NCBI GenBank assembly: GCA_040006935.1
Contig: JBDTVZ010000002.1
Span: forward strand, 43,904 to 107,903
Length of the DNA stretch: 64,000 bases
Source: Candidatus Dojkabacteria bacterium
GTDB taxonomy: Bacteria; Patescibacteriota; Dojkabacteria; J137
Direction: 5' to 3'
Made by a program: the position numbers and the translations under genes. This document shows, in pieces, positions 2,473 to 55,921 of the stretch (positions are counted from its first letter, which is position 1; each line of letters starts with the position of its first letter). The notes below the pieces were generated by a model. It was not told where the DNA came from, did not search any database, and worked only from the letters and a program-made list of their open reading frames with translations.

Positions 2473-3543
2473 ATGGACTACAGTCAAATACAATCTGTTC
2501 TTGGAGACAAGGCAGAGAATTTATTAAACTACAAATCTCCTACTTTTAAAGATCAGCAATTTTATAAACCAAATGGAAATTGGGTTGATGAAGTTATGGC
2601 TTTTTCTGATAGAAGTCCAAAAGTTTTAGAAAATTTAAAAAGACTTTACGGAGCTGGTAGATTAGCAAATTCTGGATACTTATCTATATTCCCAGTTGAT
2701 CAAGGAATTGAACACTCTGCTGGAGCATCTTTTGCAAAAAATCCAATTTATTTTGATCCTGAAAACATTGTTAAATTAGCTGTAGAAGCTCAAAGTAGTG
2801 GCGTTGCATCTACTTTAGGAGCTTTAGGCTTAGTTAGTAAAAAATATGCAGGCAAGATTCCTTTTATTGTTAAATTAAACCACAACGAACTTTTAACTTA
2901 TCCTAATAAATTTGATGAGGTTATGTTTAGTTCTGTTCAACAAGCTTTTGATATGGGAGCGGCAGGAGTTGGAGCAACAATATATTTTGGATCTGAAGAA
3001 TCTACAAGACAAATTCAAGAAGTTAGCCAAGCTTTTGCAAAAGCTCACGAACTTGGAATGTTCACAATTCTTTGGTGCTACACAAGAAATAGTGCATTTA
3101 AAAAGGATGTGATTGATTACCACACATCTGCAGACTTAACAGGACAAGCAAATCATTTAGGAGTAACAATTGAAGCAGATATTATTAAGCAAAAACTTCC
3201 AACTGTAAATGGTGGATTTAAAGCATTAAATTCTGGAAATTCTAGTTACGGAAAACTTGACGACAGAATGTATAGTGAGCTTTCTACTGATCATCCAATT
3301 GATTTAGCAAAATACCAAGTTGCAAATTGCTACATGGGAAAAATTCCATTAATTAATTCTGGAGGAGCTAGTGGGGATAATGATTTACAAGAAGCAATTG
3401 AAACGGCTGTTATTAATAAAAGAGCTGGTGGAAGTGGATTAATTTTAGGAAGAAAAGCTTTCCAAAAACCATTTGATGAGGGAGTTAAACTATTGAACGC
3501 TGTTCAGGATGTGTATTTATGTAAGGAAGTAGATTTAGCGTGA
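2473..3543 (+). CDS. fbaB: Class I fructose-bisphosphate aldolase (FbaB type)
   Basis: Near-collinear similarity to E. coli FbaB: [68 protein letters not shown]. Confidence 0.9.
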
Positions 3544-4061
3544 GTGAAGAAATAGCAAATTCTGAGTTAACAAATCCCGACGCATTTTTGAATAATAACC
3601 CACCCTTCCCTCCCTTAACAGGGAGGCCTACGGGAATATCGAATAGCCCCCTTGTTAAAGGGGGGCAGGGGGGATTTGTTAAGCCTGAGTATTTTGATAA
3701 ACCAGACTATATTCCATACAGTAAAAGATTGAAACCATTTTCGAGGGCCAACAGAAAATCCATGACACAAGCGGAAAAGAAGATTTGGTACGAAGTTTTA
3801 AGAGATAAAAAATTAGGATATAGATTTGTAAGGCAAAAGCCTATAGGAAAATATATTTTAGATTTCTATAGTTCTAAGTTACAATTGTGTATTGAGATTG
3901 ATGGAAGTACACATATAGGTAAAGAAATTGAGGATAGAGTAAGGGATGAATTTTTGCGAACATTAGGAATTACGACATTGAGATTTTGGAATTCAGAAAT
4001 AAAGAATGATTTAGAAAATATTAAAGAAAGGATTATAAGTTATATTAGTAAGAAATTTTAA
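3540..4061 (+). CDS. DUF559 endonuclease-domain protein; N-terminal ~50 codons are encoded by a palindromic repeat element
   Basis: The C-terminal core [48 protein letters not shown] is typical of DUF559 (Vsr-like fold). The GTG start and N-terminal extension are uncertain. Confidence 0.6.
3601..3688. repeat. Palindromic element (ccctccc-ttaaca-gggagg hairpin plus ccccc-ttgttaaa-gggggg hairpin) encoding ...PPLTGRP...[11 protein letters not shown]
   Basis: Two G/C hairpins seen directly. A related shorter copy is inserted in rarA at 55210-55262 (caccc...gggggNaggggggaNttg). Confidence 0.6.
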
Positions 4062-6822: not shown

Positions 6823-7818
6823 CTACACTTCAACGTAGTTTTTTTTCTCAGGAGATCTTAGAAGTTTAATCAGGAGCAAGATTACGATTATCATTACTCC
6901 TATAATTCCTATAATTGCAACTTTATATCTATCATCTTCTGTTAAATTTTCTAACCTACCTAAACCTATTCTTGCCAATAATGTGTCTGACACTACTTCG
7001 ACAGTTGTTCCATCTACAACATTTAATTCCTGGGTATTTTGATTAATTGCTGTAAGGCTATTTTCAATCATAGATTTATTCGCATCTGCTCTCACAACTA
7101 CAGCAACATTCCCAAATGCACAAGGCGAATCGGATGTATCTCCATTTTGTTTTAAAATAGAAGTTATTAGACCTACTACTTTATTAGTACCATCGAAGAA
7201 GACAGGACTTCCGCTATCTCCAAAACAAATTCCAGAGTTATTCCCTTGGACTAAGAAAGTATCTTGGGTTATGCTGCTTGCACATAAAGAAGTGCTTTTT
7301 CTTGGAGGATTACCAGCTTCAGTTTCGTTTTCTGTTCTCCCATATGCTACAACTCTATATTTACAACCTTCAATTACCGAAGCTACTTCTGCAAAGCTTG
7401 AAAAGAATCCTTTAGTATCTGAGAAATTCAAAACAGAAAAATCACTGGATCGATTTTTTGTTTCTACCCAACCCGATTTTTGAATTGCCTTATCTACTTT
7501 CAATAAATCATTCGTATCTTGTGTAAATGTTCCTCTTCCTAAGTAAATATTCTGTGCGTCGTCTACGCAATGCGAGGCAGTAATGGCAACTCTTCCATTT
7601 AATGCAGAATAACCACAAAGTTTTAATGAACCTGTAGTAGTTTCATTAATTAAAAATCCTGCGGATGGATAACCAGTTTCTAATCGACCACCGTAAAGTG
7701 CCTCCGCGTCCGATGGACTTTGATTTCTCTGAATAACATATGTAGCAAGTATAGTTGCTAGAATAAATGTTATTAATAGAAAAATAAGTACTATTCTTTT
7801 AGGCGTGTTTCCTTCCAT
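6823..7818 (-). CDS. Membrane-anchored trypsin-like (S1) serine protease
   Basis: ITASHCV (His), GDSGSPVF (Ser), N-terminal and C-terminal TM segments. Confidence 0.7.
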   Translation of the reverse strand: MEGNTPKRIVLIFLLITFILATILATYVIQRNQSPSDAEALYGGRLETGYPSAGFLINETTTGSLKLCGYSALNGRVAITASHCVDDAQNIYLGRGTFTQDTNDLLKVDKAIQKSGWVETKNRSSDFSVLNFSDTKGFFSSFAEVASVIEGCKYRVVAYGRTENETEAGNPPRKSTSLCASSITQDTFLVQGNNSGICFGDSGSPVFFDGTNKVVGLITSILKQNGDTSDSPCAFGNVAVVVRADANKSMIENSLTAINQNTQELNVVDGTTVEVVSDTLLARIGLGRLENLTEDDRYKVAIIGIIGVMIIVILLLIKLLRSPEKKNYVEV

Positions 7819-27992: not shown

Positions 27993-30602
27993 ATGACTAG
28001 AAAAAATATATTAACCGTATTAACTGGAATCTTTTTTGTGCTTTTAATTGGAGTTGGAATTTATTTTGCAATCCAAGCAACAAATAACCAAGCCCCTGGT
28101 GATGCCGCAGCTTTAGGATGTTTTCAAAGAAGCTTAGCATGTACAGGTAGTGGTTGTTATTGTGGTTCAAACTATGCAAGTGCCACTTGTAATACTAATG
28201 CGAATGGTTGCAGCCCAGTTGCTGATTGGTGCCAAAGTATAACTTGTAATCCACCGCCACCAGTTCAGCCACCGCCACCGCCACCGCCTCCTAATGCACC
28301 ACCTAATACTCCTCCACCTCCAGCACCTACATGCTATGGATCAGGAAATGCTAATGCCTGTAGTAATCCTGGTCAAGTAGTTCCATATGCAGATTCCAAC
28401 AATATTGTAACTTCATGTACTTGTGCAAGAACTACAGGTACTTTATGCTCCTGTGTGCCAAGTAATGGAACAACATGTATTGCTGATGTTACAGGAACAA
28501 ATTGTGCCTCTAAAGGAGTAGGAGCTTCATGTTCGGCTGGGAATAATGGAACTGGTTATTGTCAATCAACGGGAGTTACAAATGGTAGCTTAAATTGTGC
28601 TTGCCATGTTACAGCAAATGTCCCTCCAGCACCTCCAACAGGTTGTACTTCAGATAGTTCTTGCAATGCAGGTCAGTTTTGTAGTACAAGCAACGGAGTG
28701 TGTGGTGCTAAGCTTGCAAATGGAGTTCAAGGCTGTTCTAGTAATAATATGTGTTTAAGTGGAAGTTGTTCAAATAACTTTTGCGTCGCCACTGCACAAC
28801 CTCCTCCTGCTACAAGTGGCGGTGGAACAACTGGCGGGGCTGCTGCTGGTGCTTCTTGTATATCAAATGCCAATTGCGGAACTGGTTTAGTTTGCCAAGG
28901 TACTAATGGAAGTAAAGTTTGCCAAGTTGCAAGCAATTGTAACGCAAGTAATCCTAGCCAATGTAATTGTAATACTGGAGGTGCAGTTTGTAGCGGATAC
29001 CTAGCTTTCACTTGTAATCAATTAACAAATGGACAATGTTTAAGTAACCCTCAAGATGCCTCTAGCGAGGCAGATGCTACTAGTAAAGCAGGTGTCTGCG
29101 GTCAAGTAGATCAAGTTTGGGTTGGAGGTCCATGTAATAGAACTTTATGCGGTGGATTTACGGTATATAATCAATGTTCCGGCGGTGGCACATCCACAGG
29201 TGGAACAACCGTTACACCTCCGCCACCACCTCCACCACCACCACCTCCTCCTCCTGGCACACCTTATTGTGGAGATTCTCTTTGTGCAACTAATGAACTT
29301 TGCGAAAGGACTGCACCAAATGCAACTACTTACAAAGCATGCACAAGCGCAAGCGGAGTAGCTCCAACAGGATCCGATGTTTCTTTATGTTATGGAGTAG
29401 GATTTAGTCAACCAGTACAATCAAGTACCTGTAAATATTGTGGAGATGGAACTTACACTCCAGGAACAGAACAATGTGATGCATCTGCACCAGCAACTGG
29501 TGGCAATAATCCTGCACAATGTAGTGCATCTTGTACTTTAAATCCTGTTGCTAATGTTTGTATAAGTATGACAGAAAATGGAGTTGATCCAGTACGATCT
29601 GGTACTTCTAACTTTATAGACTATGTATTAGTATTCCAGAATAGTTCAACAAGTAACCCATTCCCTAATATTAGATTATTAGTTTCAACATCAAACACAG
29701 TTGCAACAGCAGTAGGAAGAGATGCGAATAATGTATCTAGTGCGCTAGTAGCACCAATTCCAACTGGAGGTTACACATATGACTCTGTAACATCAAGGCA
29801 TACCTATACCTTCAGATGGGAATCTGTAAGTACAGGTGGAGTTCCTGTTCCAGATGCGAGTTACACTGTAAGAGGATTAACAAATGGGACTGACGGATCT
29901 ATAGTTACAACACCAGCAGAATGTACAGAGAGCATAACTACATCAGCTGCACAGGTACAAGAGCCATTATTTAATATTATTAAAACTGCTGTGGAAACTT
30001 GCGGTGAAGGTACAAATGCTGTAATCAATTATACTGTAACAGTAACTAATGTGGGACCAGTATCTGGAGTAGTGGACTTTGTTACAGATACACTAGATCC
30101 ACTAATAGTTAGCTTGGGAATAACACCAACTAGTATTAATCCCGCATCTGGGAATTATTCTGCAGGTGTAATTACGTGGACTGGTACAGTAGGAGAGAGA
30201 ACATTCACTGCTGGGCAATCTAAGACTTATACTTATACTGTTACTATTCCGTCTAATCAAGTTCTTAACTTTGCAAGTGCTGGTGTACAAAACTTAGCTG
30301 CTGTCCAATACGATACAAATACAACATCTAACAATACTTCCAGCTTTAATTTAAGAACAATGTTAAGTTGTACTATAAATGGTATTCCAATTACTGGAAT
30401 ATTTGATGATGGTAAATTGCTCTTGTTTGGATTAGTATTTATATTCTTAGGATTTGTAGCTTATAGATATCAAATTGGTAAAACAATTTCCGAAAAATTA
30501 ATTTCTGGAGCTTTGAATACTGCAGAAGGTGGCGTTGAAAAATTAATGCCATTTGAAGACAGAATTGAAAGAAAAATGGAAAAAAGAAGAAAGAAAGAAT
30601 AA
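27993..30602 (+). CDS. Large Cys-rich cell-surface protein with poly-Pro linkers, DUF11-like repeat and C-terminal TM anchor
   Basis: N-terminal TM helix; more than 60 Cys; PPPPVQPPPPPPPPNAPP and P13 tracts. DUF11-like NYTVTVTNVGPVSGVVDFVTDTLDP. C-terminal TM helix LLLFGLVFIFLGFVAY. Confidence 0.6.
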   Translation: MTRKNILTVLTGIFFVLLIGVGIYFAIQATNNQAPGDAAALGCFQRSLACTGSGCYCGSNYASATCNTNANGCSPVADWCQSITCNPPPPVQPPPPPPPPNAPPNTPPPPAPTCYGSGNANACSNPGQVVPYADSNNIVTSCTCARTTGTLCSCVPSNGTTCIADVTGTNCASKGVGASCSAGNNGTGYCQSTGVTNGSLNCACHVTANVPPAPPTGCTSDSSCNAGQFCSTSNGVCGAKLANGVQGCSSNNMCLSGSCSNNFCVATAQPPPATSGGGTTGGAAAGASCISNANCGTGLVCQGTNGSKVCQVASNCNASNPSQCNCNTGGAVCSGYLAFTCNQLTNGQCLSNPQDASSEADATSKAGVCGQVDQVWVGGPCNRTLCGGFTVYNQCSGGGTSTGGTTVTPPPPPPPPPPPPPGTPYCGDSLCATNELCERTAPNATTYKACTSASGVAPTGSDVSLCYGVGFSQPVQSSTCKYCGDGTYTPGTEQCDASAPATGGNNPAQCSASCTLNPVANVCISMTENGVDPVRSGTSNFIDYVLVFQNSSTSNPFPNIRLLVSTSNTVATAVGRDANNVSSALVAPIPTGGYTYDSVTSRHTYTFRWESVSTGGVPVPDASYTVRGLTNGTDGSIVTTPAECTESITTSAAQVQEPLFNIIKTAVETCGEGTNAVINYTVTVTNVGPVSGVVDFVTDTLDPLIVSLGITPTSINPASGNYSAGVITWTGTVGERTFTAGQSKTYTYTVTIPSNQVLNFASAGVQNLAAVQYDTNTTSNNTSSFNLRTMLSCTINGIPITGIFDDGKLLLFGLVFIFLGFVAYRYQIGKTISEKLISGALNTAEGGVEKLMPFEDRIERKMEKRRKKE

Positions 30603-32216: not shown

Positions 32217-32708
32217 TTATCTTACAGAAAGCTCACCTCCATTATCCTTAAGCCAAGCCTCTGCAACTCGATATTCTGGCATTACTTTAGATACTTCTTT
32301 CCAGAAGGATTGAGAGTGATTCATTTGTCTTGTGTGACAAAGTTCATGAAGGATAACGTAATCTAACGCTTTAAGTGGGGCAAAACTCAGCCTCCAGTTG
32401 AAATTCAGGTTCTTTTGACTAGAACAACTTCCCCATCTGCTTACGGTGTCTTTAATTGCGACTCTCTTGAATTGGAAATCATACTTTTTTGCAAAATGTT
32501 TTGCTCTTTTCTCGATGTGAGCTCTGGATTCCTCTACTAGCCATTCATTTAGGATTTTTTTGAAGTTCTTTTTATCCTCACCTCTAAAAACCACCACCTT
32601 GGTTTTAGTCCTTACAACCCTTGCCTTTAAAAACACTCTCTCGGAGAATTCAACATTCAGCTCTTCTCCTAGGAATTTAATTTTTGATTGATGTGCTAAT
32701 TTGACCAT
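32217..32708 (-). CDS. DUF45/YgjP-like zinc metallohydrolase
   Basis: HELCHTRQMNHSQSFW (HExxH...NHS.FW) motif. Confidence 0.7.
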   Translation of the reverse strand: MVKLAHQSKIKFLGEELNVEFSERVFLKARVVRTKTKVVVFRGEDKKNFKKILNEWLVEESRAHIEKRAKHFAKKYDFQFKRVAIKDTVSRWGSCSSQKNLNFNWRLSFAPLKALDYVILHELCHTRQMNHSQSFWKEVSKVMPEYRVAEAWLKDNGGELSVR

Positions 32709-35667: not shown

Positions 35668-36651
35668 ATGGCAGGAACGTTTCAGCAAGTTGGTGATTTA
35701 TCTTTAGCTAATGACACTAAAGCAGATATCCAAGATTATATAAGAATGGAAATTGTTCCAGAAATTATTGGAAGAGATAAAGATTCAGAAAGTACTTTAC
35801 TTCTTCTTCATAGATTAGCCACTGCAGGTAGTAACCCAAAAGGTGAGAGAAAAATAACCAGAACAATGCAAATTCTGCAAGCGTCCGGCTTAATTGCTAA
35901 GCCTGATGAAAAAATCGCTCATAGGGCACTATCCGATAAGCATAGCTCAATTAAAGTAAAATTAGCACCAAATCATGGGAGAGGTCACTATAGACTTTTG
36001 GGAACTGTATATAAGGATGGAGAAGAGGTTAAGAAAGTATGGCTAGAGAGAGCCATAGCGATATTAAGAAAAGGAAGCACAGAATCGAGTATGTATGTCG
36101 CTCCTTCCATGGAAGTAGATGTTTTAATGAGCGCTTTAGGGCAAGCCTTTGATCAATTAGAACAAAGATTACAAACTCCAGAATATATTGCTCTTATCGT
36201 GGCCTTCTTTTATACAATCGGTAATAAATTCATTCATCCATTTAAGGACGGAAATCATAGGGCATTCGATCGATTTATAGAAACTTTTTTTTGGAAACAT
36301 GGAATTCCCATAGAATTGCCACAAGATGAAAGCTCCAATATCCCTCTAGATGAGATTGTGAGAGTTTGGGAAATAAACTGTCTGCTTAATTTTTTAAAAA
36401 TCAATGGACTACCTTTAAACTTTATTGCAAAAACAAAACGAGAAGAGGACATTTACCATGCAAGGCTGACTGTGGGAATTTTTAATTTAATAAACTCAGG
36501 ACTTAGTGATCCTAATTATTTATTTTTTTACTTGAATGTTGCTGAACAATTTCTTTCTTGGGTACCTGACTTTGATCTAACTAATATAAAAGAAGCTATT
36601 AGAGTTGTTCAAGAAAAAATAAATATTCGTCCAGGTAAATTTGAAATGTAA
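35668..36651 (+). CDS. Fic/DOC-family-like protein with degenerate motif HPFKDGNHRAF
   Basis: The motif matches HPFx[DE]GNGR except G to H. Weak overall. Confidence 0.4.
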   Translation: MAGTFQQVGDLSLANDTKADIQDYIRMEIVPEIIGRDKDSESTLLLLHRLATAGSNPKGERKITRTMQILQASGLIAKPDEKIAHRALSDKHSSIKVKLAPNHGRGHYRLLGTVYKDGEEVKKVWLERAIAILRKGSTESSMYVAPSMEVDVLMSALGQAFDQLEQRLQTPEYIALIVAFFYTIGNKFIHPFKDGNHRAFDRFIETFFWKHGIPIELPQDESSNIPLDEIVRVWEINCLLNFLKINGLPLNFIAKTKREEDIYHARLTVGIFNLINSGLSDPNYLFFYLNVAEQFLSWVPDFDLTNIKEAIRVVQEKINIRPGKFEM

Positions 36652-36704: not shown

Positions 36705-37427
36705 ATGAACAATTTCCAATCAAATCCATTTTACAAAGAAGATGCAAAGCCAAAAAAAAGAAAGATTCTTGGCAATATAATTACAGCTTTAGCAATTATT
36801 GCAATTGCACTTTTAATTTCTTGGTTTACTATTCTGGGACAAAATTTAGTTGATGGACCTTCCATGCGAGCTAACCTATACACTGGGGATTTTTTGCTAG
36901 TAAATAGATTCCCAGCATTATTTGGAGAAGGATTCTCCAAAACAATCGGTATTGATTACGAAAGAGGAGACATGATAGTTTTACATAAACCTGGATTTAA
37001 CGAATTCGTAAAAAGAGTAATAGCAAAAGAGGGAGAAAAAATTAATATAGATAAAGGAAGAATATTTATAAATGGACAAGTAATGGTTGAAAATTATTTA
37101 CCTGAAAAGCTTTATACAAATGGGGGAGATTTCTTGCAAGAAGGTGGAGCACCAATCGAAGTTCCAACTGGGTATTTAATTGCAATTGGAGATAATAGAC
37201 CAGAAAGTAATGACTCGAGATTTGAGGAAATTGGATTAATTAAACGAGAATGGATTAAGGGTAAAGTATTTTTAAGAATTTGGCCAGCTAATGCAGTTAC
37301 ATTTATTCCAAGAGGTACATTCAGTTTTGTGGATCCAGCAAATTACGATTTTAATAAAGCAGATATAGATTTTAGGAATCCTACAGAAAGAACTGGAGTT
37401 TGCCAAAATTTATCACAGTGTTTTTAA
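36705..37427 (+). CDS. lepB: Signal peptidase I
   Basis: GPSMRANL (Ser box), LVNRF, GDNRPESNDSR box E. Confidence 0.8.
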   Translation: MNNFQSNPFYKEDAKPKKRKILGNIITALAIIAIALLISWFTILGQNLVDGPSMRANLYTGDFLLVNRFPALFGEGFSKTIGIDYERGDMIVLHKPGFNEFVKRVIAKEGEKINIDKGRIFINGQVMVENYLPEKLYTNGGDFLQEGGAPIEVPTGYLIAIGDNRPESNDSRFEEIGLIKREWIKGKVFLRIWPANAVTFIPRGTFSFVDPANYDFNKADIDFRNPTERTGVCQNLSQCF

Positions 37428-37506
37428 AGCACAGACGACGCTCGCCTTCGGCTCGCTCGTTACAAACAGCTACCAAATAGAAACTTTTGTAAATTCCCAT
37501 TTGGTA

Positions 37507-37524
37507 GCCGAAGACACAGATTTC
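37507..37524. repeat. Left 13-bp inverted repeat (gccgaagacacagatttc) of the GC-rich cassette
   Basis: Reverse complement of tctgtgtcttcgg at 38172-38184. Confidence 0.5.
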
Positions 37525-37563
37525 TCCTTTCGATTTTGCTTCGGCATACCCTTTAATCAGTCG

Positions 37564-38097
37564 TTAGGGACAGTTTGCAGGATCTTCGTGCAATCCCTGC
37601 TCGTCCCAATAACGGGGTGAGCATAGAACGTTCCCATCTTCATCGATCAGCCAAGCTTTGCCTTTGACTGAGTTCTCAATTGCGTTCAAGAAACGCTCTC
37701 CGTTTGCGCCACCTGAAACTAACCAAGTCATGTCTCCGCTTACCATTCCGTTGTTAAAGGTGCCATCATGCAGGGCTTGTAAAACGTCCCCTGGAACCTC
37801 ATATTGAGGTGGTCCCGCTGGTGCATCAGGTAAAACTCGCGTGCATGTTTTGGTAAACGTTATGGTGCCGTCTTGAGGGTTGCCCCCAACGGTAGTGCCA
37901 ACGAAAGTTAACCCAGAATCAACGCATACATCCCAATTGGCAGCAACGTAGCCAGCGCATGTGATTGCGCCACTCACACCCGCAACAACGGGTTGTGAAC
38001 AGGAAAATGCCTGAGTCTGTGTGGATGCTGACACTGTAGGCAGAATCGCCAATATCACGATAACAAGTAAGGTCAGAAGCAGTACTTTGAACTTCAT
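37564..38097 (-). CDS. Cys-rich secreted protein on a GC-rich (about 55%) segment
   Basis: Start at MKFKVLLLTLLVIVILAILPTVSAS, with GGAGGA 7 nt upstream. Ten Cys. Composition differs sharply from neighbours. Confidence 0.5.
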   Translation of the reverse strand: MKFKVLLLTLLVIVILAILPTVSASTQTQAFSCSQPVVAGVSGAITCAGYVAANWDVCVDSGLTFVGTTVGGNPQDGTITFTKTCTRVLPDAPAGPPQYEVPGDVLQALHDGTFNNGMVSGDMTWLVSGGANGERFLNAIENSVKGKAWLIDEDGNVLCSPRYWDEQGLHEDPANCP

Positions 38098-38168
38098 TAG
38101 AAGTCCTCCACAATATTGAACAGAAACATGCAAATTACAAATTTATAATCTATATGTTTCTGTCCAAT

Positions 38169-38186
38169 TATTTCTGTGTCTTCGGT
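38169..38186. repeat. Right 13-bp inverted repeat (tatttctgtgtcttcggt) of the GC-rich cassette
   Basis: Perfect 13-nt reverse-complement match to 37510-37522. Confidence 0.5.
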
Positions 38187-38341
38187 TGTTAAAACTGAGA
38201 TTGAGAATCTTTCGACCACTCTTTTTATTCCCAGAATCTAATAAATTGTAAATCACTAATATTACTATTAAGGGATTTTTACAATTATTGGGATTATATC
38301 ACGGGTATACAGCGAGAACAATTGGCGCACTTCCACACTTT

Positions 38342-38460
38342 TTGTGTCATTTCGACTGAGGAGCTTAAGCGACGAATGGAGAAATCTTTACCACTGCCCC
38401 ATAATGTCAGAAGGGTGGTACAGATTTCTCGACTCACTTCGTTCGCTCGAAATGACACAA
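38342..38460. mobile_element. MITE-like element (~119 bp) with TIR TTGTGTCATTTCGA / TCGAAATGACACAA
   Basis: Terminal inverted repeats; internal cgacgaatggagaaatctt and ctcacttcgttcg motifs shared with the 42103-42222 and 41431-41540 copies. Confidence 0.6.
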
Positions 38461-38472
38461 TATTGTAATAGT

Positions 38473-38508
38473 CCCCTCTCCTTTTAAGGAGAGGGTTAGG
38501 GTGAGGTC
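38473..38508. repeat. Hairpin cccctctcc-ttttaa-ggagaggg plus gggtgagg
   Basis: Related to 43362-43429 (ccctctcc...ggagaggg, cctcaccc...gggtgagg). Confidence 0.5.
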
Positions 38509-38655
38509 AAAAAGATAAGACTGCCAAGCAATCGAGTGTCGTAACCCCACAAAATATTAACTGCCCGAAGAGTGTATGAGGTGGGCTAAAGCCAACATAA
38601 ATCTAAAGCTCATAAATTCGCTAAGATTTATAGCTGTATTGTAATAGATTCGAAA

Positions 38656-38692
38656 GAGATTGCTTCGTCGCTTTTAGCGGATCGCAATGACA
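38656..38692. repeat. gagattgcttcgtcgct...tcgcaatgaca element just 3' of the ATPase gene
   Basis: Same ends as 42336-42400, which additionally carries a gcctgcgtacgcagtcaggc insert. Confidence 0.5.
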
Positions 38693-38693
38693 T

Positions 38694-41204
38694 CTAATTT
38701 TTCTTAGGACTATCATCTTTCTTACCTTCCTTTTCTTGAGGATCTTTTGAAGGTTTAGACTCTGGAGTAAACTGACCAGGCTGAATCAAATTTCCCTTAT
38801 TATCGTACTGCTGACTCGCCCACTTATTAATTTTACTTTCAACTTGATCTCGTGGTTTTGAGAATTTCTCTCTAGAAGCTTCTTTAACTTTCTCTTTTAG
38901 ACCTGTGTCTTTGTATTGTGGTTTTAGTGCAATTGCAGTAAATGGAGGTGTTTGAGCTCCGTCTACAGTCATTTTCATTGCGAGTCTGTACTTATCTAAG
39001 TTCACCAAATCTTCAGAGGATAAATATGGAGTGTATTCTTTTTCTAATCTCAAGCCATCTTTTTGTCCGACAACATAGTTCATTAATGTTCCTACATTTC
39101 CAAAAATTGCATCTTGAATTGTTGGGTCTATCTGGTCGATGTATTGATGGGTGACTATTAAATTTAATGCGTATTTTCTAGCTTCTGATAGAATTTTTAC
39201 AAATGAATCTGTAGCAAAATTTTGAAATTCATCAACGTATAGATAGAAATCTTTTCTTTCTTCTTTTGCAATTCGTGCTCTTTGCATTGCATTTGAGTAA
39301 AGCCTTGTTACTATCATTCCTCCTAATAATGAAGAATTTTCTTCTCCAATCTTTCCTTGAGATAAGTTTACTAACAAGATCTTTTCTGAATTCATAATAT
39401 CTTGTAAATCAATCGAAGATTTTATTTGTCCGATCATATTTCTTACCATTGGGGAACTTAGGAATCGACCAACTTTGTTTTGAATTGGAGCAAGAGCTTC
39501 TGCTAGTAATCTTGGATTTTGTCCAAGTTGTTCATATTCTTCCTGCCAGAATTTTAATAAAAATGGATCCTTAACTTGTTTTAATAAAAATTTTCTATAA
39601 TTTTTATCTGTTAGAATCCTTTGGACTGCAAGTAGGGAAACATTTTGGCAGTGTAATAAAGTCAAAACTGCATTTGCAAGTATATATTGTAATCTTGGTC
39701 CCCAGGAATCTCCAAAGTATTTTTTAAACACATTTACAATTCCGTCTGCAAGTAAATCGATAGTTTCTTCTGGATGAATATCCAACATGTTTAATCCGAT
39801 TGGGTTTTCAATATCAGATGGATCTAAGTAAATAATATCTTTAATTCTATTTTCTGGAATTAATTCCAAAACTTCCTCTACTAATTCTCCGTGAGGATCC
39901 AACACCGCTAACCCTTTCCCATCAATAATATCTCCAACTATCATGTTTTTCATGAATGTAGATTTACCTGTTCCAGTTTTACCGAGAAGGTACATATGTC
40001 TTCTTCGATCTTCATCTTTTATTCCGAAAGGAATGTGAATATTCCTGTAATCTGTAAGTCCAATTAGACGCATTCCTTTTGGTGGGATATTATCGGCTAA
40101 TTCTTGTTCAGAGATTAATGGGAGATTTAATGGGAATTCTAATTTTTTAGATTTTGCCCATGCAATATTTGGAGTTTTTACGGATTCATTTGGTAAATGA
40201 AAAATAGAAGCAAGCTCCTCGATATTTAGAATGTCTGTTTCTCGCTCATCCAAATATCGAGTTTCGTATTTTTGAGGGAAATTTAAATTATCTCCCAATC
40301 GTGTTCCCTGAATGGCTTTACTGACAGATTTATTAAATTTTTTATTTAATTCGCCAACAAAAGTTTTCTTTTTATCTTTGGGTTTTATTAAGCTATTTAA
40401 TTGGGCTGTTTGGAATTGCTTGAAAGATGCTTCTATATCTTGAATTAAAGTTTTTAAGGACGAAGGCTCTGGCCCTTGAACTAAAATCCTAATTTTAAAT
40501 TGAAATCCTACTTTATTATTTTTCTTTTCAATTTCTGAAAATTCTGCAGTTTTGCCTTCTTCTAATTGGATTTTATTTCCTTCAGCATCTTTTTTATTTC
40601 GATTTGTATCTATATATTTTTTACCAATTTGCTGCCAAGAATTATCTATTGGACGTGCTAGTAATTGAATAAATACTTCGTTACCTTGGTTTAATTTTGA
40701 AACTGACGAAGTTATAGATGCTAACGGGTCCACTTCAAAACTTTGAAACGTTTTTATAGGTAAGAAAAATTCTTTAGAAAGTTTTAGTTCTATTCCTATT
40801 CTATGAACATTCTTTTTTATGCCAACTTCCGCATAATCGTGAACAGTTTCTATCTGTGCTTCTGGATATTGTGCATAGATTTGATTTTCTATAAAAGTTT
40901 TATATCTCTTATTACAAACTACTATAAAAAATATTCCAATTGGATTTGCATAAATTTCAAAACTGAAGTGATCCTTAGATTTTACCTCTCCTTGAATTAC
41001 TCCATGCAATGCTTGGAAGAACTGCTCTGCAGATGCAGGCTTTTTATCGTTCTTAACTGGAACAGAAATTTTTAAAATTGTTTGGTCTAAAATAGCTTCA
41101 CTGACTTTTGTGCGAAGATTTAAGTATCTTAAAATTATTAAATAAGAGACAGTAAATATTGCAGCAAGAAAAATTGAAAGTTGTATTATAAAATCGAAGT
41201 CCAC
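38694..41204 (-). CDS. VirB4/VirD4(TraG)-like FtsK-HerA-superfamily P-loop ATPase with N-terminal TM and disordered Lys/Glu-rich C-terminus
   Basis: Walker A LGKTGTGKST, downstream LDPHGEL, Walker B FYLYVDEFQNF. Type IV secretion or competence-type ATPase. Confidence 0.5.
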   Translation of the reverse strand: MDFDFIIQLSIFLAAIFTVSYLIILRYLNLRTKVSEAILDQTILKISVPVKNDKKPASAEQFFQALHGVIQGEVKSKDHFSFEIYANPIGIFFIVVCNKRYKTFIENQIYAQYPEAQIETVHDYAEVGIKKNVHRIGIELKLSKEFFLPIKTFQSFEVDPLASITSSVSKLNQGNEVFIQLLARPIDNSWQQIGKKYIDTNRNKKDAEGNKIQLEEGKTAEFSEIEKKNNKVGFQFKIRILVQGPEPSSLKTLIQDIEASFKQFQTAQLNSLIKPKDKKKTFVGELNKKFNKSVSKAIQGTRLGDNLNFPQKYETRYLDERETDILNIEELASIFHLPNESVKTPNIAWAKSKKLEFPLNLPLISEQELADNIPPKGMRLIGLTDYRNIHIPFGIKDEDRRRHMYLLGKTGTGKSTFMKNMIVGDIIDGKGLAVLDPHGELVEEVLELIPENRIKDIIYLDPSDIENPIGLNMLDIHPEETIDLLADGIVNVFKKYFGDSWGPRLQYILANAVLTLLHCQNVSLLAVQRILTDKNYRKFLLKQVKDPFLLKFWQEEYEQLGQNPRLLAEALAPIQNKVGRFLSSPMVRNMIGQIKSSIDLQDIMNSEKILLVNLSQGKIGEENSSLLGGMIVTRLYSNAMQRARIAKEERKDFYLYVDEFQNFATDSFVKILSEARKYALNLIVTHQYIDQIDPTIQDAIFGNVGTLMNYVVGQKDGLRLEKEYTPYLSSEDLVNLDKYRLAMKMTVDGAQTPPFTAIALKPQYKDTGLKEKVKEASREKFSKPRDQVESKINKWASQQYDNKGNLIQPGQFTPESKPSKDPQEKEGKKDDSPKKN

Positions 41205-41430: not shown

Positions 41431-41540
41431 TTGTGTCATCTCGAGCGAAGTCGAGAGATCTCAACCAGCTTCCTGACATGATACGACAAGTGGTTAAGAT
41501 TTCCCTTGCCTGACGGTAGGCAGGTCAGTCGAAATGACAT
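41431..41540. mobile_element. MITE-like element, inverted orientation (TIR ttgtgtcatctcgag ... gtcgaaatgacat)
   Basis: Start matches the reverse complement of the 42190-42222 end. Contains gcctgacggtaggc hairpin. Confidence 0.55.
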
Positions 41541-41546
41541 TAATCA

Positions 41547-42008
41547 TTAAATAATGTCTGATATTTCCGAAAGCAAGCTATTGGCAGAGTTCCGAAGGAA
41601 GTTAGAATTTGGGGAATAATCCATTTCGTGTGCTAGCTTGTTTCGAAGTTTATGAACTTCCCAAATTGTATTGTAAGAAGTATTATTTCGAAATAAATGT
41701 TTTGCATTTTTAAGTCTTTCACCTAAAGTCTCTCCTTTTACTTTTTTAGATTTCAGTACAAAGTCTAAAAGCTTATCTGCTTCAAATACAGCATTCTTTA
41801 AAATCATTTCTTCTTTCGCAGTAGTTAGTCCTCTAATTTTATTTAAATTAGTTTTAGCCTTTATTTTCCACTCCGCATCCGCATGCTGAGGAGTTAAAAG
41901 CATGTAAACAAAAATCCCCCCGAGGATTGCAACAGCGATAATTACAATTGCTAAAAGTTCATTCATGCCTATATGATACTGGAAAATGAATAATATTTGT
42001 AGAGTCAA
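41547..42008 (-). CDS. Hypothetical small membrane-anchored protein
   Basis: TM helix LLAIVIIAVAILGGIFVYMLL. Start may be the downstream MNELL. 3' end abuts the MITE. Confidence 0.3.
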   Translation of the reverse strand: MTLQILFIFQYHIGMNELLAIVIIAVAILGGIFVYMLLTPQHADAEWKIKAKTNLNKIRGLTTAKEEMILKNAVFEADKLLDFVLKSKKVKGETLGERLKNAKHLFRNNTSYNTIWEVHKLRNKLAHEMDYSPNSNFLRNSANSLLSEISDII

Positions 42009-42102: not shown

Positions 42103-42222
42103 TTGTGTCATTTCGACTGACCTGCCTGACTGCGTACGCAGGCACGGGGAGTGTAACGACGAATGGAGACATCTTCGACCACGGAGGTTAAAGATCTCTC
42201 GACTTCGCTCGAGATGACACAA
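42103..42222. mobile_element. MITE-like element with TIR TTGTGTCATTTCGA...TCGAGATGACACAA and nested cctgcctgactgcgtacgcaggca hairpin
   Basis: Collinear with 38342-38460 apart from the inserted hairpin module. Confidence 0.6.
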
Positions 42223-42335: not shown

Positions 42336-42400
42336 TGAGATTGCTTCGTCGCTGTGCTCCCCATGCCTGCGTACGCAGTCAGGCAGGTCGCAATGACAAC
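42336..42400. repeat. gagattgcttcgtcgct-[gcctgcgtacgcagtcaggc hairpin]-gtcgcaatgaca element
   Basis: Inverted copy of the hairpin module at 42118-42148. Just 3' of the uvrB fragment. Confidence 0.55.
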
Positions 42401-43826: not shown

Positions 43827-44444
43827 TTACTTGTCTCTTTCAAATGCAACCATCCATCTTTGTTCAGTTGATGAACACACAGAATCTTTACATTTTCCGT
43901 AAGAAGTGAACATTGTGATTGTATCAAACCCAGTCCAATTACCCATAACTTCAATCCTTGTATCTGGAATAGGACCTGAAGTGAATATATAACCTGAGTA
44001 TAAAATACCACCTAAGCATGAAGTCATTTTATCTCCAGCCTGTAAATTCATAATATTGGCGAATTGGCTTCTAGGCTGATCGCACAATCCATAAACACAA
44101 ATATTGTGACCAATAATTAAGAAATTCTTTGAAGAGTCGTAATAAGTATCTAAAATTAAAGAAGGTACACTTTTACTGCCCCAATCGCTTAAGAGAAGTG
44201 AGTTTAAATCTATCTTCCCAGTCGCAGATGAGTCTATCCATTGACCATCACATGGAGGTTCGGAGGTATTACTATTCTCTATACTTGATAACTTTACTGG
44301 ACCGTAAATTGGTTTATCACCAGAAGTTTGTACTAAAGAGTTCCCCGATGAATTTAAGGAAACATTAATAAGTATTACTCCTACTAAAACTAGGATTGAT
44401 GTTGTAAAAATTTTGATTATAAATGATTTATTTATGGTTTTCAT
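43827..44444 (-). CDS. Putative sortase-family transpeptidase (divergent)
   Basis: N-terminal TM helix. NFLIIGHN resembles sortase NISIAGH. Cys in TITMFTSYGKC, downstream Arg. The TLxTC motif is not canonical. Confidence 0.3.
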   Translation of the reverse strand: MKTINKSFIIKIFTTSILVLVGVILINVSLNSSGNSLVQTSGDKPIYGPVKLSSIENSNTSEPPCDGQWIDSSATGKIDLNSLLLSDWGSKSVPSLILDTYYDSSKNFLIIGHNICVYGLCDQPRSQFANIMNLQAGDKMTSCLGGILYSGYIFTSGPIPDTRIEVMGNWTGFDTITMFTSYGKCKDSVCSSTEQRWMVAFERDK

Positions 44445-54682: not shown

Positions 54683-55921
54683 TTGGAACCTTTAGCTTCA
54701 AAATTTCGACCACAAAATCTTAATGAATTTATTGGACAAGAACATCTTGTTGGTGAAGGTAAACCTATACGAAAATTTATAGAAACTGGAAATATTCCTT
54801 CAATGATTTTTTGGGGACCTCCTGGAACTGGGAAAACTACATTAGCTTATATTATTTCTAAAACTGTTCATGCAGATTTTTACAAACTTTCTGCGGTAAT
54901 GAGTGGGAAAGCACAACTTATGGATATTATTAAAAAAGCCATGAAGCAAAGCCAATCCCCTACTTTAACAGGTGGCGATAAGACAATCTTATTTCTGGAT
55001 GAAATTCATCGATGGAATAAATCTCAACAGGATGCATTACTTCCTTATGTTGAAAAAGGTGTAATAATTTTAATTGGAGCGACGACTGAAAACCCATCCT
55101 TTAGTTTAATCCCTGCTCTGCTTTCAAGGTGTAGAGTGTTTACATTTCAAAAGCATGAGACTACGGATGTGGAAAAATATGTGAATTTACTCGTTGAAAA
55201 ACTAAATAACACCCCCGACTTCGTCATCCCTTCTTTATCAAAGAGGGGGAAGGGGGGAGTTGATATTGATAAAGAATCTATTGAATTTATTGCGAAAGCA
55301 TCAGATGGAGATTTAAGAACATCAGCAAATATTTTAGAATCTACTCTATTTGCAGGGGAAGGGGAAATTAATAAAGAAATTTTGAAGAAGACGGTAGAAA
55401 ATTTCTTACAATACGAAAGTAGAGGTGAGGACCATTACAATATAATTTCTGCAGTACATAAATCTTTAAGGGATTCTGATCCAGATGCAGGAGTTTATTG
55501 GGTTACTAGAATGCTGGAAGCTGGAGATGATCCACTTTATATCGCACGAAGACTTTTGAGGTTCGCATCCGAAGATATTGGAAATGCTGATCCACAAGCT
55601 GTGATTTTAGCAAATACAATTTTTGAAACTTGTCAAAAATTAGGAAGACCAGAATGTGATGTGGCATTAATTCAACTAGCAATTTATTTAGCCAGAGCTC
55701 CAAAAAGCAACGAAGCTTATTTTGCAAGTAATTTAGCAAAGCAAGATGTGCAAGAATATGGTTCGCTTCCTGTGCCCTTGCATATTAGGAACGCACCTAC
55801 TAAACTGATGAAAGAATTAAACTATGGGAAAGGTTATAAATATGCCCATGATTATAAAGATGCGAAAGTGGATCAAGAACATTTGCCTGATCAATTGAAA
55901 AATAAGAAATATACTAAATAA
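54683..55921 (+). CDS. rarA: Recombination factor RarA/MgsA AAA+ ATPase with in-frame palindromic insertion
   Basis: FWGPPGTGKTT, LFLDEIHRWNKSQQDALLPYVEKG, C-terminal MgsA domain. Insertion peptide PDFVIPSLSKRGKGGVDID. Confidence 0.85.
   Translation: MEPLASKFRPQNLNEFIGQEHLVGEGKPIRKFIETGNIPSMIFWGPPGTGKTTLAYIISKTVHADFYKLSAVMSGKAQLMDIIKKAMKQSQSPTLTGGDKTILFLDEIHRWNKSQQDALLPYVEKGVIILIGATTENPSFSLIPALLSRCRVFTFQKHETTDVEKYVNLLVEKLNNTPDFVIPSLSKRGKGGVDIDKESIEFIAKASDGDLRTSANILESTLFAGEGEINKEILKKTVENFLQYESRGEDHYNIISAVHKSLRDSDPDAGVYWVTRMLEAGDDPLYIARRLLRFASEDIGNADPQAVILANTIFETCQKLGRPECDVALIQLAIYLARAPKSNEAYFASNLAKQDVQEYGSLPVPLHIRNAPTKLMKELNYGKGYKYAHDYKDAKVDQEHLPDQLKNKKYTK
55210..55262. repeat. Family-B palindromic element inside rarA (cacccccgacttcgtcatcccttctttatcaaagagggggaaggggggagttg)
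   Basis: Same ends and G/C hairpin layout as 3601-3688. The encoded KRGKGGV parallels VKGGQGGF. Confidence 0.6.

Follow-up and report, generated by a model that had tools for sequence, protein, structure and literature searches.

A stretch of 64,000 nucleotides (nt) from Candidatus Dojkabacteria bacterium (Bacteria; Patescibacteriota; Dojkabacteria; J137), referred to here as the window, corresponds to positions 43,904 to 107,903 of the forward strand of contig JBDTVZ010000002.1 in GenBank assembly GCA_040006935.1. It contains a short gene for a secreted protein, which lies between lepB and a gene for a VirD4-like ATPase and is framed by a perfect 13-bp inverted repeat. The best explanation of this locus is that it belongs to a clade-specific family of expression modules, each of them self-contained, which encode hypervariable secreted proteins and occupy a fixed chromosomal slot; the architecture of these modules is apparently undescribed. 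The two arms of the repeat are tentatively read as elements of the untranslated regions (UTRs) at the 5' and 3' ends of one transcript, which pair with each other in the messenger RNA (mRNA); we put the chance of this a little short of even.

The arms of the repeat, CCGAAGACACAGA (37508-37520) and TCTGTGTCTTCGG (38173-38185), are reverse complements of each other and are 652 nt apart. A sequence-only reading of the same DNA had described the gene as framed by such a repeat, which proved to be real and perfect over 13 bp, although the coordinates given for it were off by 1-2 nt. These are the only two copies of the arm in the 64 kb, even when 2 mismatches are allowed. Only 2.5% of Markov-simulated windows contain, within 1 kb, an inverted repeat that is perfect over a 13-mer and has 7 or more G+C; a chance origin was ruled out by the conservation of the repeat in 6 lineages and by the co-variation of its arms. 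In gene sense, each module starts with a promoter, a GAAA-tetraloop hairpin, an A-rich spacer, the 5' arm, a hairpin of 20-25 bp, the Shine-Dalgarno (SD) sequence and the open reading frame (ORF), which is followed by a 3'UTR motif, the 3' arm, a hairpin with conserved stems and usually a terminator. The module of the window is composed as follows:

38292-38320, minus strand: predicted sigma-70-type promoter, TTGTTC-17-TGATATAAT, outside the repeat, with the 5' arm about 105 nt downstream
38203-38221, minus strand: GAAA-tetraloop hairpin in the leader, GAGUGGUC-GAAA-GAUUCUC
38186-38194, minus strand: A-rich spacer UUUUAACAA, abutting the 5' arm; conserved form TTAACAA or TTAAAAA
38173-38185, minus strand: 5' arm, gene sense CCGAAGACACAGA; the same in 7 cassettes, co-varied to CCGAAGATACATC in L055
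38115-38168, minus strand: hairpin A (stem-loop, about 25 bp), beginning 4 nt past the 5' arm
38104-38109, minus strand: SD sequence GGAGGA, 6 nt 5' of the ATG, by direct sequence reading
37564-38097, minus strand: secreted-protein ORF, 177 aa, with a signal peptide, two domains and 6 cysteines in the mature part
37538-37551, minus strand: 3'UTR motif GGGUAUGCCGAAGC, complementary to CUUCGGCUACC, where the 3' arm meets hairpin B
37508-37520, minus strand: 3' arm, gene sense UCUGUGUCUUCGG, plus strand CCGAAGACACAGA; the same in 6 of 7 other cassettes
37469-37508, minus strand: hairpin B, stems CTACCAAATG / (C/T)ATTTGGTAG with a variable loop, abutting the 3' arm

Using lepB, the arm sequence and the ATPase gene as handles, orthologous loci were retrieved from 5 lineages beyond the window. 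The flanking genes of the window and the content of the related loci are the following:

36705-37427, plus strand: lepB (signal peptidase I; Pfam Peptidase_S26, E = 2.7e-29), convergent with the cassette
38694-41204, minus strand: gene for the VirD4/TrwB-like ATPase (DUF8128 and DUF87, from Pfam), sharing its strand with the cassettes
L001 / L052 (genome collection / Logan): two cassettes in tandem and a GIY-YIG gene
L002 (genome collection): one cassette
L005 / L009 / L054 (metagenome / ENA): two cassettes and a decayed remnant
L053 (Logan): one cassette; the contig stops inside hairpin B
L055 (Logan): one cassette

The slot between the VirD4-like ATPase gene and lepB is filled in all 6 lineages, with 1-3 modules each, and in every lineage the slot genes are small, encode a signal peptide and lie on the strand of the ATPase gene. 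In the window, the ORF at 37564-38097 is the sole long ORF between the two neighbours. The ATPase orthologue precedes the array in each lineage that has one, and lepB orthologues flank the array in L001, L002, L005 and L054. The same two arms bound 8 of 8 intact cassettes (6 lineages). Next to lepB, L005 carries a decayed third cassette at 7284-7490 (5554-5757 in L054) with the diverged arms CCGAAGATACAGG and AATGTGTCTTCGG; a 26-aa ORF with a lipoprotein-like signal peptide is left of it, hairpin B is gone, and its 5' arm has a C-to-T change in common with the co-varied arms of L055.

The elements around the arms recur throughout the family. In cassettes L001_B and L005_B, the 5' arm is preceded at a distance of about 100 nt by a perfect TTGACA-17-TATAAT. 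The window promoter, which belongs to the same upstream class (U1), takes the equivalent position with its register off by a few nt; it was passed over by a consensus scanner, since its -35 element matches at just 3 of 6 positions. The GAAA hairpin is present in all cassettes, with its loop 24-28 nt upstream of the arm across three unrelated classes of upstream sequence. Its stems show compensatory (U-A to A-U) as well as G.U changes, and the background frequency of such a hairpin is 2.4% of windows. Hairpin A of the window has a minimum free energy (MFE) of -25 kcal/mol, a value that only 0.2% of background windows reach. In 8 of 8 cassettes the 5' arm is followed, after 0-17 nt, by an equivalent hairpin, the sequences of which are unrelated (at least 5 classes); these hairpins have 20-25 bp and MFEs of -23 to -32 kcal/mol, and at most 0.2% of background windows match them. 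Downstream of the ORF, the motif GGUAGYCGRAG is present in 7 of 7 cassettes tested (p <= 0.007 in each, the background being GC-rich), and variant forms of it still pair via U.G or G.U. The duplex of GGGUAUGCCGAAGC with the junction CUUCGGCUACC has an energy of -15.9 kcal/mol, and this complementarity makes the 3'UTR motif an alternative pairing partner. Hairpin B retains the same stems around unrelated loops of about 10-55 nt in 6 of 7 cassettes analysed, the L053 contig ending inside it, and canonical terminators are predicted after this hairpin in most cassettes. A separate feature is found in the A-type cassettes, whose 5' leader (L001 11799-11931, L002 1245-1379) is GC-rich and about 135 nt long, is conserved in both genomes (local alignment score 150) and contains a second conserved hairpin, GGGAUGGGUAAG…CCCCCAUUCUAU, directly upstream of the SD sequence. 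This leader type is absent from the window and could be a separate regulatory RNA element.

The arm pair is identical in 7 cassettes of 5 lineages, save for one terminal mismatch in L005_B. In L055, the arms read CCGAAGATACATC and GATGTATCTTCGG, so that 3 of 13 pairs are changed on both sides and a perfect 15-bp repeat is formed. A formal count over 9 cassettes showed 97.4% of cells paired and 3 double-change pairs; in register-slid controls, 28-46% were paired. The arms of the L005 remnant differ by one U.G-compatible change and two mismatches. Complementarity has been kept by compensatory change, which indicates that the inverted-repeat relationship itself is under selection, and compensatory change of the kind looked for in 5'UTR-3'UTR pairing is thereby present. 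Arm co-variation is, however, equally expected of RNA pairing and of DNA sites that are read by one protein.

In the mechanism that we propose, both arms would be transcribed and would pair with each other, thereby closing the message into a 5'/3' end-paired form that is stacked directly on the 3' hairpin. This form may control processing of the mRNA (e.g., by RNase III), its stability or its translation, and the local 3'UTR motif would compete for the 3' arm, giving an alternative state. With a 25-bp hairpin at its start and paired or hairpin structures at its end, the mRNA, once processed, would presumably be unusually stable. As the only sequence common to all modules, the arms may in addition be the site where recombination shuffles the interiors; arms that act as shared recombination sites would explain the cassette-like mosaicism and the variation in copy number. 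Because the predicted promoters lie upstream of the 5' arm and the terminators past the 3' hairpin, both arms fall inside the predicted transcript. The conserved features nearby appear RNA-like, as they include a loop of the GNRA type, co-variation that tolerates G.U pairs and a 3'UTR partner that competes for the arm; as far as can be judged from the sequences, this supports pairing. In local folds the 5' arm is mostly single-stranded, and in modelled folds of the full transcript the arm helix is part of the MFE structure of 8 of 8 modules, with a mean pair probability of 0.60-1.0.

Intramolecular pairing between the 5'UTR and the 3'UTR is found in the hbs mRNA of Bacillus subtilis. In the icaR mRNA of Staphylococcus aureus, the 3'UTR likewise pairs with the 5'UTR, at the Shine-Dalgarno region (PMC3868564). 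The present modules resemble icaR and hbs in having complementary 5' and 3' UTR segments in one, here predicted, transcript, and for the two known mRNAs, a role of the pairing in controlling translation, cleavage by RNase III or stability has been proposed or shown. Unlike in icaR, the 5' arm is located about 75-145 nt upstream of the start codon, clear of the SD sequence. A further difference from both is that the 13-mer pair is common to a whole family of paralogous modules, in which it is accompanied by further conserved hairpins, and that it is known from sequence alone. A second precedent is provided by ribosomal RNA (rRNA) operons, which contain a boxB hairpin, boxA, boxC and long-range RNase III stems that bracket 16S and 23S rRNA. 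As in the leader of an rRNA operon, a promoter is followed by a hairpin, an A-rich ...TTTAACAA element, the 5' strand, the product and the 3' strand, and the helix brackets the product; unlike in the rRNA operon, the product is the mRNA of a secreted protein and the helix has just 13-15 bp. The spacer (TTTTAACAA) presumably bears a partial resemblance to rrn boxA, as this motif is generally known.

Several points weigh against pairing of the arms. The promoters and terminators are predictions only and are weak in the U2 and U3 upstream classes. The co-variation would be equally expected if the arms were DNA sites for one recombinase or transposase, and it comes from a single lineage, so that it counts as one set of evolutionary events. 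In five lineages the arms do not vary, whereas the neighbouring helices co-vary freely, and this points to sequence-specific recognition over pairing alone. To form a helix of 13 bp over a distance of 650-800 nt in a translated mRNA is demanding in kinetic terms, and a perfect 13-bp duplex will appear in almost any MFE prediction, so that the support from folding is weak. Finally, the GC-rich codons of the cassette genes are left unexplained by the pairing model.

Comparison of the cassettes with each other revealed that their flanks and interiors are combined in a mosaic. Three upstream classes were distinguished: U1 (window, L001_B and L005_B), U2 (L001_A, L002_A and L005_C) and U3 (L053 and L055), and these do not follow the interior or protein classes. 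U2 precedes A-type interiors and also the C-type interior, whose protein is nearer to that of the window, and in L053 a B-type protein stands behind U3. The U1 sequences align with about 76% identity as far as the arm, where the alignment collapses, and the loops of the 3' hairpin are common to unrelated interiors. Mosaic flanks and interiors, together with a copy number of 1-3, indicate that the arms behave as exchange boundaries. The proposal of the sequence-only reading that the segment is a small cassette has therefore survived in part: the repeat delimits a module, copy number varies from 1 to 3 and the mosaic breaks fall at the arms, but a miniature inverted-repeat transposable element (MITE) or a recent acquisition is not supported.

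Mosaic breaks at the arms and varying copy number also suit the main rival reading, in which the arms are DNA sites for a site-specific recombinase that is encoded elsewhere in the genome and that catalyses inversion or cassette exchange. We consider this rather unlikely. It would account for the use of one arm sequence by every cassette, which is invariant in five lineages, and for the joint change of both arms in L055. In the inversion form of this reading, the gene would flip relative to an external promoter, resulting in phase variation of the secreted protein; the predicted promoter is indeed outside the repeat and the gene inside, and hypervariable secreted cargo is typical of phase-variable loci. 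The modules share with invertons a 13-bp inverted repeat with arms 650-800 bp apart, a promoter outside, a surface or secreted gene inside and the reuse of the repeat by several units. Unlike in invertons, a single orientation is seen in all assemblies (12 of 12 cassette observations in 9 assemblies, which show the majority state only), and no invertase was recognised by eye in the 64-kb window; moreover, most invertons flip a promoter and not a whole gene with its UTR structures. In the exchange form, double crossovers with incoming DNA would swap the interior, as in recombinase-mediated cassette exchange or in dif modules. The pdif sites of Acinetobacter plasmids are 28 bp long and consist of a XerC arm, a XerD arm and a spacer of 6 bp (PMC6449649, PMC13141974). 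Like Acinetobacter dif modules, the present modules are discrete gene units between inversely oriented short conserved sites and occur in shuffled combinations. They differ in that the conserved 20-23 nt (TCTGTGTCTTCGG with CTACCAAATG or TTGTTAA) lack a two-arm dyad on inspection (dif has partially palindromic 11-bp arms and a 6-bp centre), and in that dif modules are found on plasmids and in many contexts, whereas this system is restricted to one chromosomal locus. More generally, the 13-mer has no internal dyad and no two half-sites of Xer, Hin or Cre-type cores, and no recombinase was recognised by eye among the ORFs of the 64 kb. A recombinase would also leave three features unaccounted for, namely the GAAA hairpin, the hairpin that follows the 5' arm and co-varies, and the G.U-tolerant 3'UTR motif. 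Pairing in RNA and recombination are nevertheless not exclusive; conserved RNA elements would at the same time be the sole homology through which modules could recombine.

Integrons offer a further comparison, as their arrays likewise consist of tandem single-ORF cassettes in one orientation at one locus, with variable content, orphan or secreted cargo and anomalous composition. Unlike integrons, the locus has no adjacent intI; its neighbours are the VirD4-like ATPase gene and lepB in all lineages, and no integrase-like ORF was recognised by eye in the 64 kb. There is also no attC, i.e., no imperfect palindrome of 57-141 bp with RYYYAAC/GTTRRRY cores 3' of the ORF, and the strings nearest to such cores at the module boundaries are GTTAAAA, GTTAATA and GTTTTTA. 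Furthermore, the repeats bracket the gene instead of trailing the ORF, and each module apparently has its own promoter. It is clearly unlikely, in our estimate, that the arms mark a new integrase-independent locus for cassette exchange or phase variation, at which effectors of host interaction from a shared GC-rich pool are swapped or flipped and the UTR scaffold serves as a universal expression socket. In a more speculative version, the module would be tied to the adjacent VirD4-like coupling ATPase and to exported nucleic acid, with codons that suit a GC-richer host.

That the 13-mer stays the same in paralogous modules and in five lineages, whereas the adjacent helices drift, could also be explained if the arms were operators. 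A DNA- or RNA-binding regulator would then recognise each arm separately, thereby insulating or co-regulating the modules, and the inversion would be incidental. The short conserved flanks of the arms, TTAACAA/TTAAAAA on one side and CTACCAAATG on the other, fit such a site. However, a regulator site needs no exact complementarity between its copies, and the three concerted changes in L055, which keep a perfect 15-bp repeat, would require a joint shift of the sites and the protein. The site is also asymmetric, and its 5' copy lies about 100 nt downstream of the promoter; this reading is considered very unlikely.

The sequence-only reading itself had suggested horizontally acquired cargo or a MITE with a passenger gene; that the segment is such a MITE or a transposon, or a cassette that was recently acquired from a GC-richer donor, is now extremely improbable. 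In favour of this view, the gene is framed by a perfect inverted repeat, as the terminal inverted repeats of a transposon frame a small segment, its codon usage is unlike that of the host genome (CGT, CTG, GC at third codon positions of 0.38-0.67), and the cassette content varies between genomes. However, target-site duplications are missing at the arms, in the window and in all relatives (the flanks ...TTTGGTAG|CCGAAG...CTTCGG|TTGTTAAA contain no direct repeat), and the arms are confined to one locus in the 64-kb window and the related loci. Transposases, integrases and reverse transcriptases were not recognised by eye among the ORFs of the window. The units of homology reach past the repeat, each cassette type having its own upstream region outside it, and the shift in GC is limited to the ORF and does not cover the block from arm to arm. 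MITEs and transposons with terminal inverted repeats differ from the modules in all of these respects, i.e., target-site duplication, dispersal, transposase and extent of the homology unit. Empty-site alleles were looked for in the relatives and were absent within the clade (6 lineages), where the slot is always occupied; the distant relatives L056-L059, whose VirD4-like proteins are 68-72% identical, have a different synteny and no arms, and were discarded as uninformative as empty sites. Recent acquisition does not agree with a locus that is syntenic in close relatives, with GC-rich codons that are a family-wide property or with the lack of a donor: a search by protein returned 0 homologues beyond these loci, including phages and plasmids. 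The locus is ancestral to the clade. Matches to the arms elsewhere were dismissed as chance (39 single, unpaired matches of a 16-mer in viral contigs and 7 single, unpaired matches of a 19-mer in high-GC metagenomes). A diversity-generating retroelement was also rejected, as there is no direct repeat of the ORF within 37000-39000 and no reverse transcriptase-like ORF was recognised in the window.

The composition of the cassette gene is a strong outlier, as the sequence-only reading had noticed, although the values differ from its estimates: GC is 49.6% and not about 55%, against a mean of the window of 33.7% and not 32%, and 0.52-0.58 is reached in sub-windows of 60-200 nt only. The highest 500-nt GC of the whole window falls at this gene. 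Its GC at the first, second and third codon positions (GC1, GC2 and GC3) is 0.57, 0.47 and 0.46, respectively, compared with about 0.45, 0.34 and 0.22 in the other 53 ORFs, whose GC3 spans 0.16-0.36. The log-likelihood of its codon usage (per codon, genome usage) has a z of -6.4, making it the strongest codon outlier of the window; the windowed comparison of GC and codon usage thus clearly separates it from its surroundings. In the pooled cassette genes, CGT accounts for 55% of arginine codons, whereas AGA accounts for 70% in background genes, and CTG for 26% of leucine codons versus 2% in the background. In the window gene, NNC/(NNC+NNT) is 0.57 versus about 0.22, and third-position A is 0.26 versus 0.41. 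GC3 is raised in all cassettes (0.38-0.67), with adjoining genes at about 0.20. The shift begins at the ORF, the leader of the window inside the repeat having only 27% GC; in 5 of 8 cassettes this leader has 27-34% GC and in the other 3 it has 42-48%. Amino-acid composition was ruled out as the source, as GC3 and synonymous choices shift too. A contrast is provided by an 869-aa surface protein rich in cysteine, proline and glycine with a C-terminal anchor (27993-30602), which forms a second GC peak (44-46%): its GC2 is 0.58 and its GC3 is a normal 0.17, so that its high GC comes from amino-acid composition. Codon bias through translational selection was unsupported as well, since the genes for GAPDH and PGK show a GC3 of about 0.20 and no CGT arginine codons, the comparison covering glycolytic genes only. 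A second codon outlier, with a much milder deviation, is a gene for a YgjP/WLM-like metallohydrolase at 32217-32708 (GC3 0.36, NNC fraction 0.45, CTG in 21% of leucine codons). GC-rich codons with a bias towards CGT, CTG and NNC are thus kept in a 33% GC genome, and they persist across species whose LepB proteins share only 73-77% identity. Three candidate causes may be named: AU-rich targets of RNases may be selected against, in keeping with the other stabilising features; gene conversion may be biased at a locus that is prone to recombination; or the genes may be replenished out of an unseen cassette pool.

The protein of the window starts with a Sec-type signal peptide, MKFKVLLLTLLVIVILAILPTVSA|S, by inspection; the signal-peptide gene with a GGAGGA ribosome-binding site described in the sequence-only reading was thereby confirmed. 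AlphaFold2 predicted its structure with a mean predicted local distance difference test score (pLDDT) of 79, using a 5-member alignment as input, and relatives in Pfam or the PDB were not found for it. Cysteine makes up 2.9% of the residues in the pooled cassette genes and 1.3% in background genes. The family is very divergent, with 23-35% identity to the window protein, and the cysteine framework is largely kept across the cassette proteins, together with the motif PP.PEVP...AL...F..G...G.TW. An exhaustive HMMER search of 1.84 billion representative proteins yielded 2 relatives, both encoded at this locus, and a word-indexed profile search added 2 further relatives, again at this locus. Outside these Dojkabacteria loci, 0 homologues were found among 5.8 billion clustered and 1.84 billion representative proteins, and tblastn against phage and plasmid collections returned 0 homologues of the cassette protein. 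The cassette proteins thus appear, by these searches, to be an orphan family.

Several other features were observed around the slot. In one lineage only, a gene for a 105-aa GIY-YIG nuclease (L001 10797-11114; L052 7399-7716) is located between lepB and the array. It is flanked by GTCATTACGA...-type repeats, which are related to a family of repeats ending in TGTGTCATYTCGAS, and its C-terminus (…GIATLRSQ) extends into the repeat; a degenerate stretch with a similar sequence is present at 37428-37468 of the window. Repeats of the TGTGTCATYTCGAS-ended family are MITE-like, form hairpins and measure about 110-120 nt, and the window has 9 matches where 0.9 would be expected; copies are located at 38342-38460, 41431-41541 and 42103-42222, with a partial one at 42340-42400. 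The first of these (fold z = -6) lies between the VirD4-like gene and the cassette promoter and is absent from this position in L001 and L005. The small gene at 41547-42008 is flanked by two inverted copies with perfect inverted repeats of 31 bp and 22 bp. A palindromic, GC-rich intergenic element, CCCCTCTCCTTTTAAGGAGAGGGTTAGGGTGAGGTC, is found at 38470-38510, and a peptide-level echo of it is contained in the N-terminal part of a DUF559-like ORF (3540-4061). The ORF at 54683-55921 has a similar echo, which suggests a further family of short repeats that at times read into ORFs. Beyond lepB, a Fic/DOC-like gene for 327 aa (35668-36651; Pfam E = 9e-4, below the curated cut-off) lies between lepB and a gene for an FKBP-type isomerase. 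The isomerase gene and lepB are adjacent in L001, L005/L054 and L052, and the Fic/DOC-like gene is therefore a lineage-specific insertion beside the cassette locus. The window contains no tRNA genes, and Rfam gave no match at gathering thresholds and only noise at E <= 5.

CPR/Patescibacteria (CPR, candidate phyla radiation) are thought to live attached to other microbes, and to our knowledge there is hardly any information on the ways in which they vary and control their secreted proteins. The locus described here represents a dedicated, conserved socket for hypervariable secreted proteins, which combines a UTR scaffold and a co-varying long-range repeat with divergent codon usage that is kept across species. 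GC-rich codons that are limited to the ORF in a reduced genome of 33% GC are an unexplained evolutionary signal in themselves. If the arms pair in RNA, the modules would be a family-wide case of 5'/3' end-pairing in bacterial mRNA; if they are recombination sites, an uncultured phylum would possess a new system of cassettes or of phase variation. In both cases, concrete and testable sequences are available in the form of the arms, the hairpins and the 3'UTR motif.

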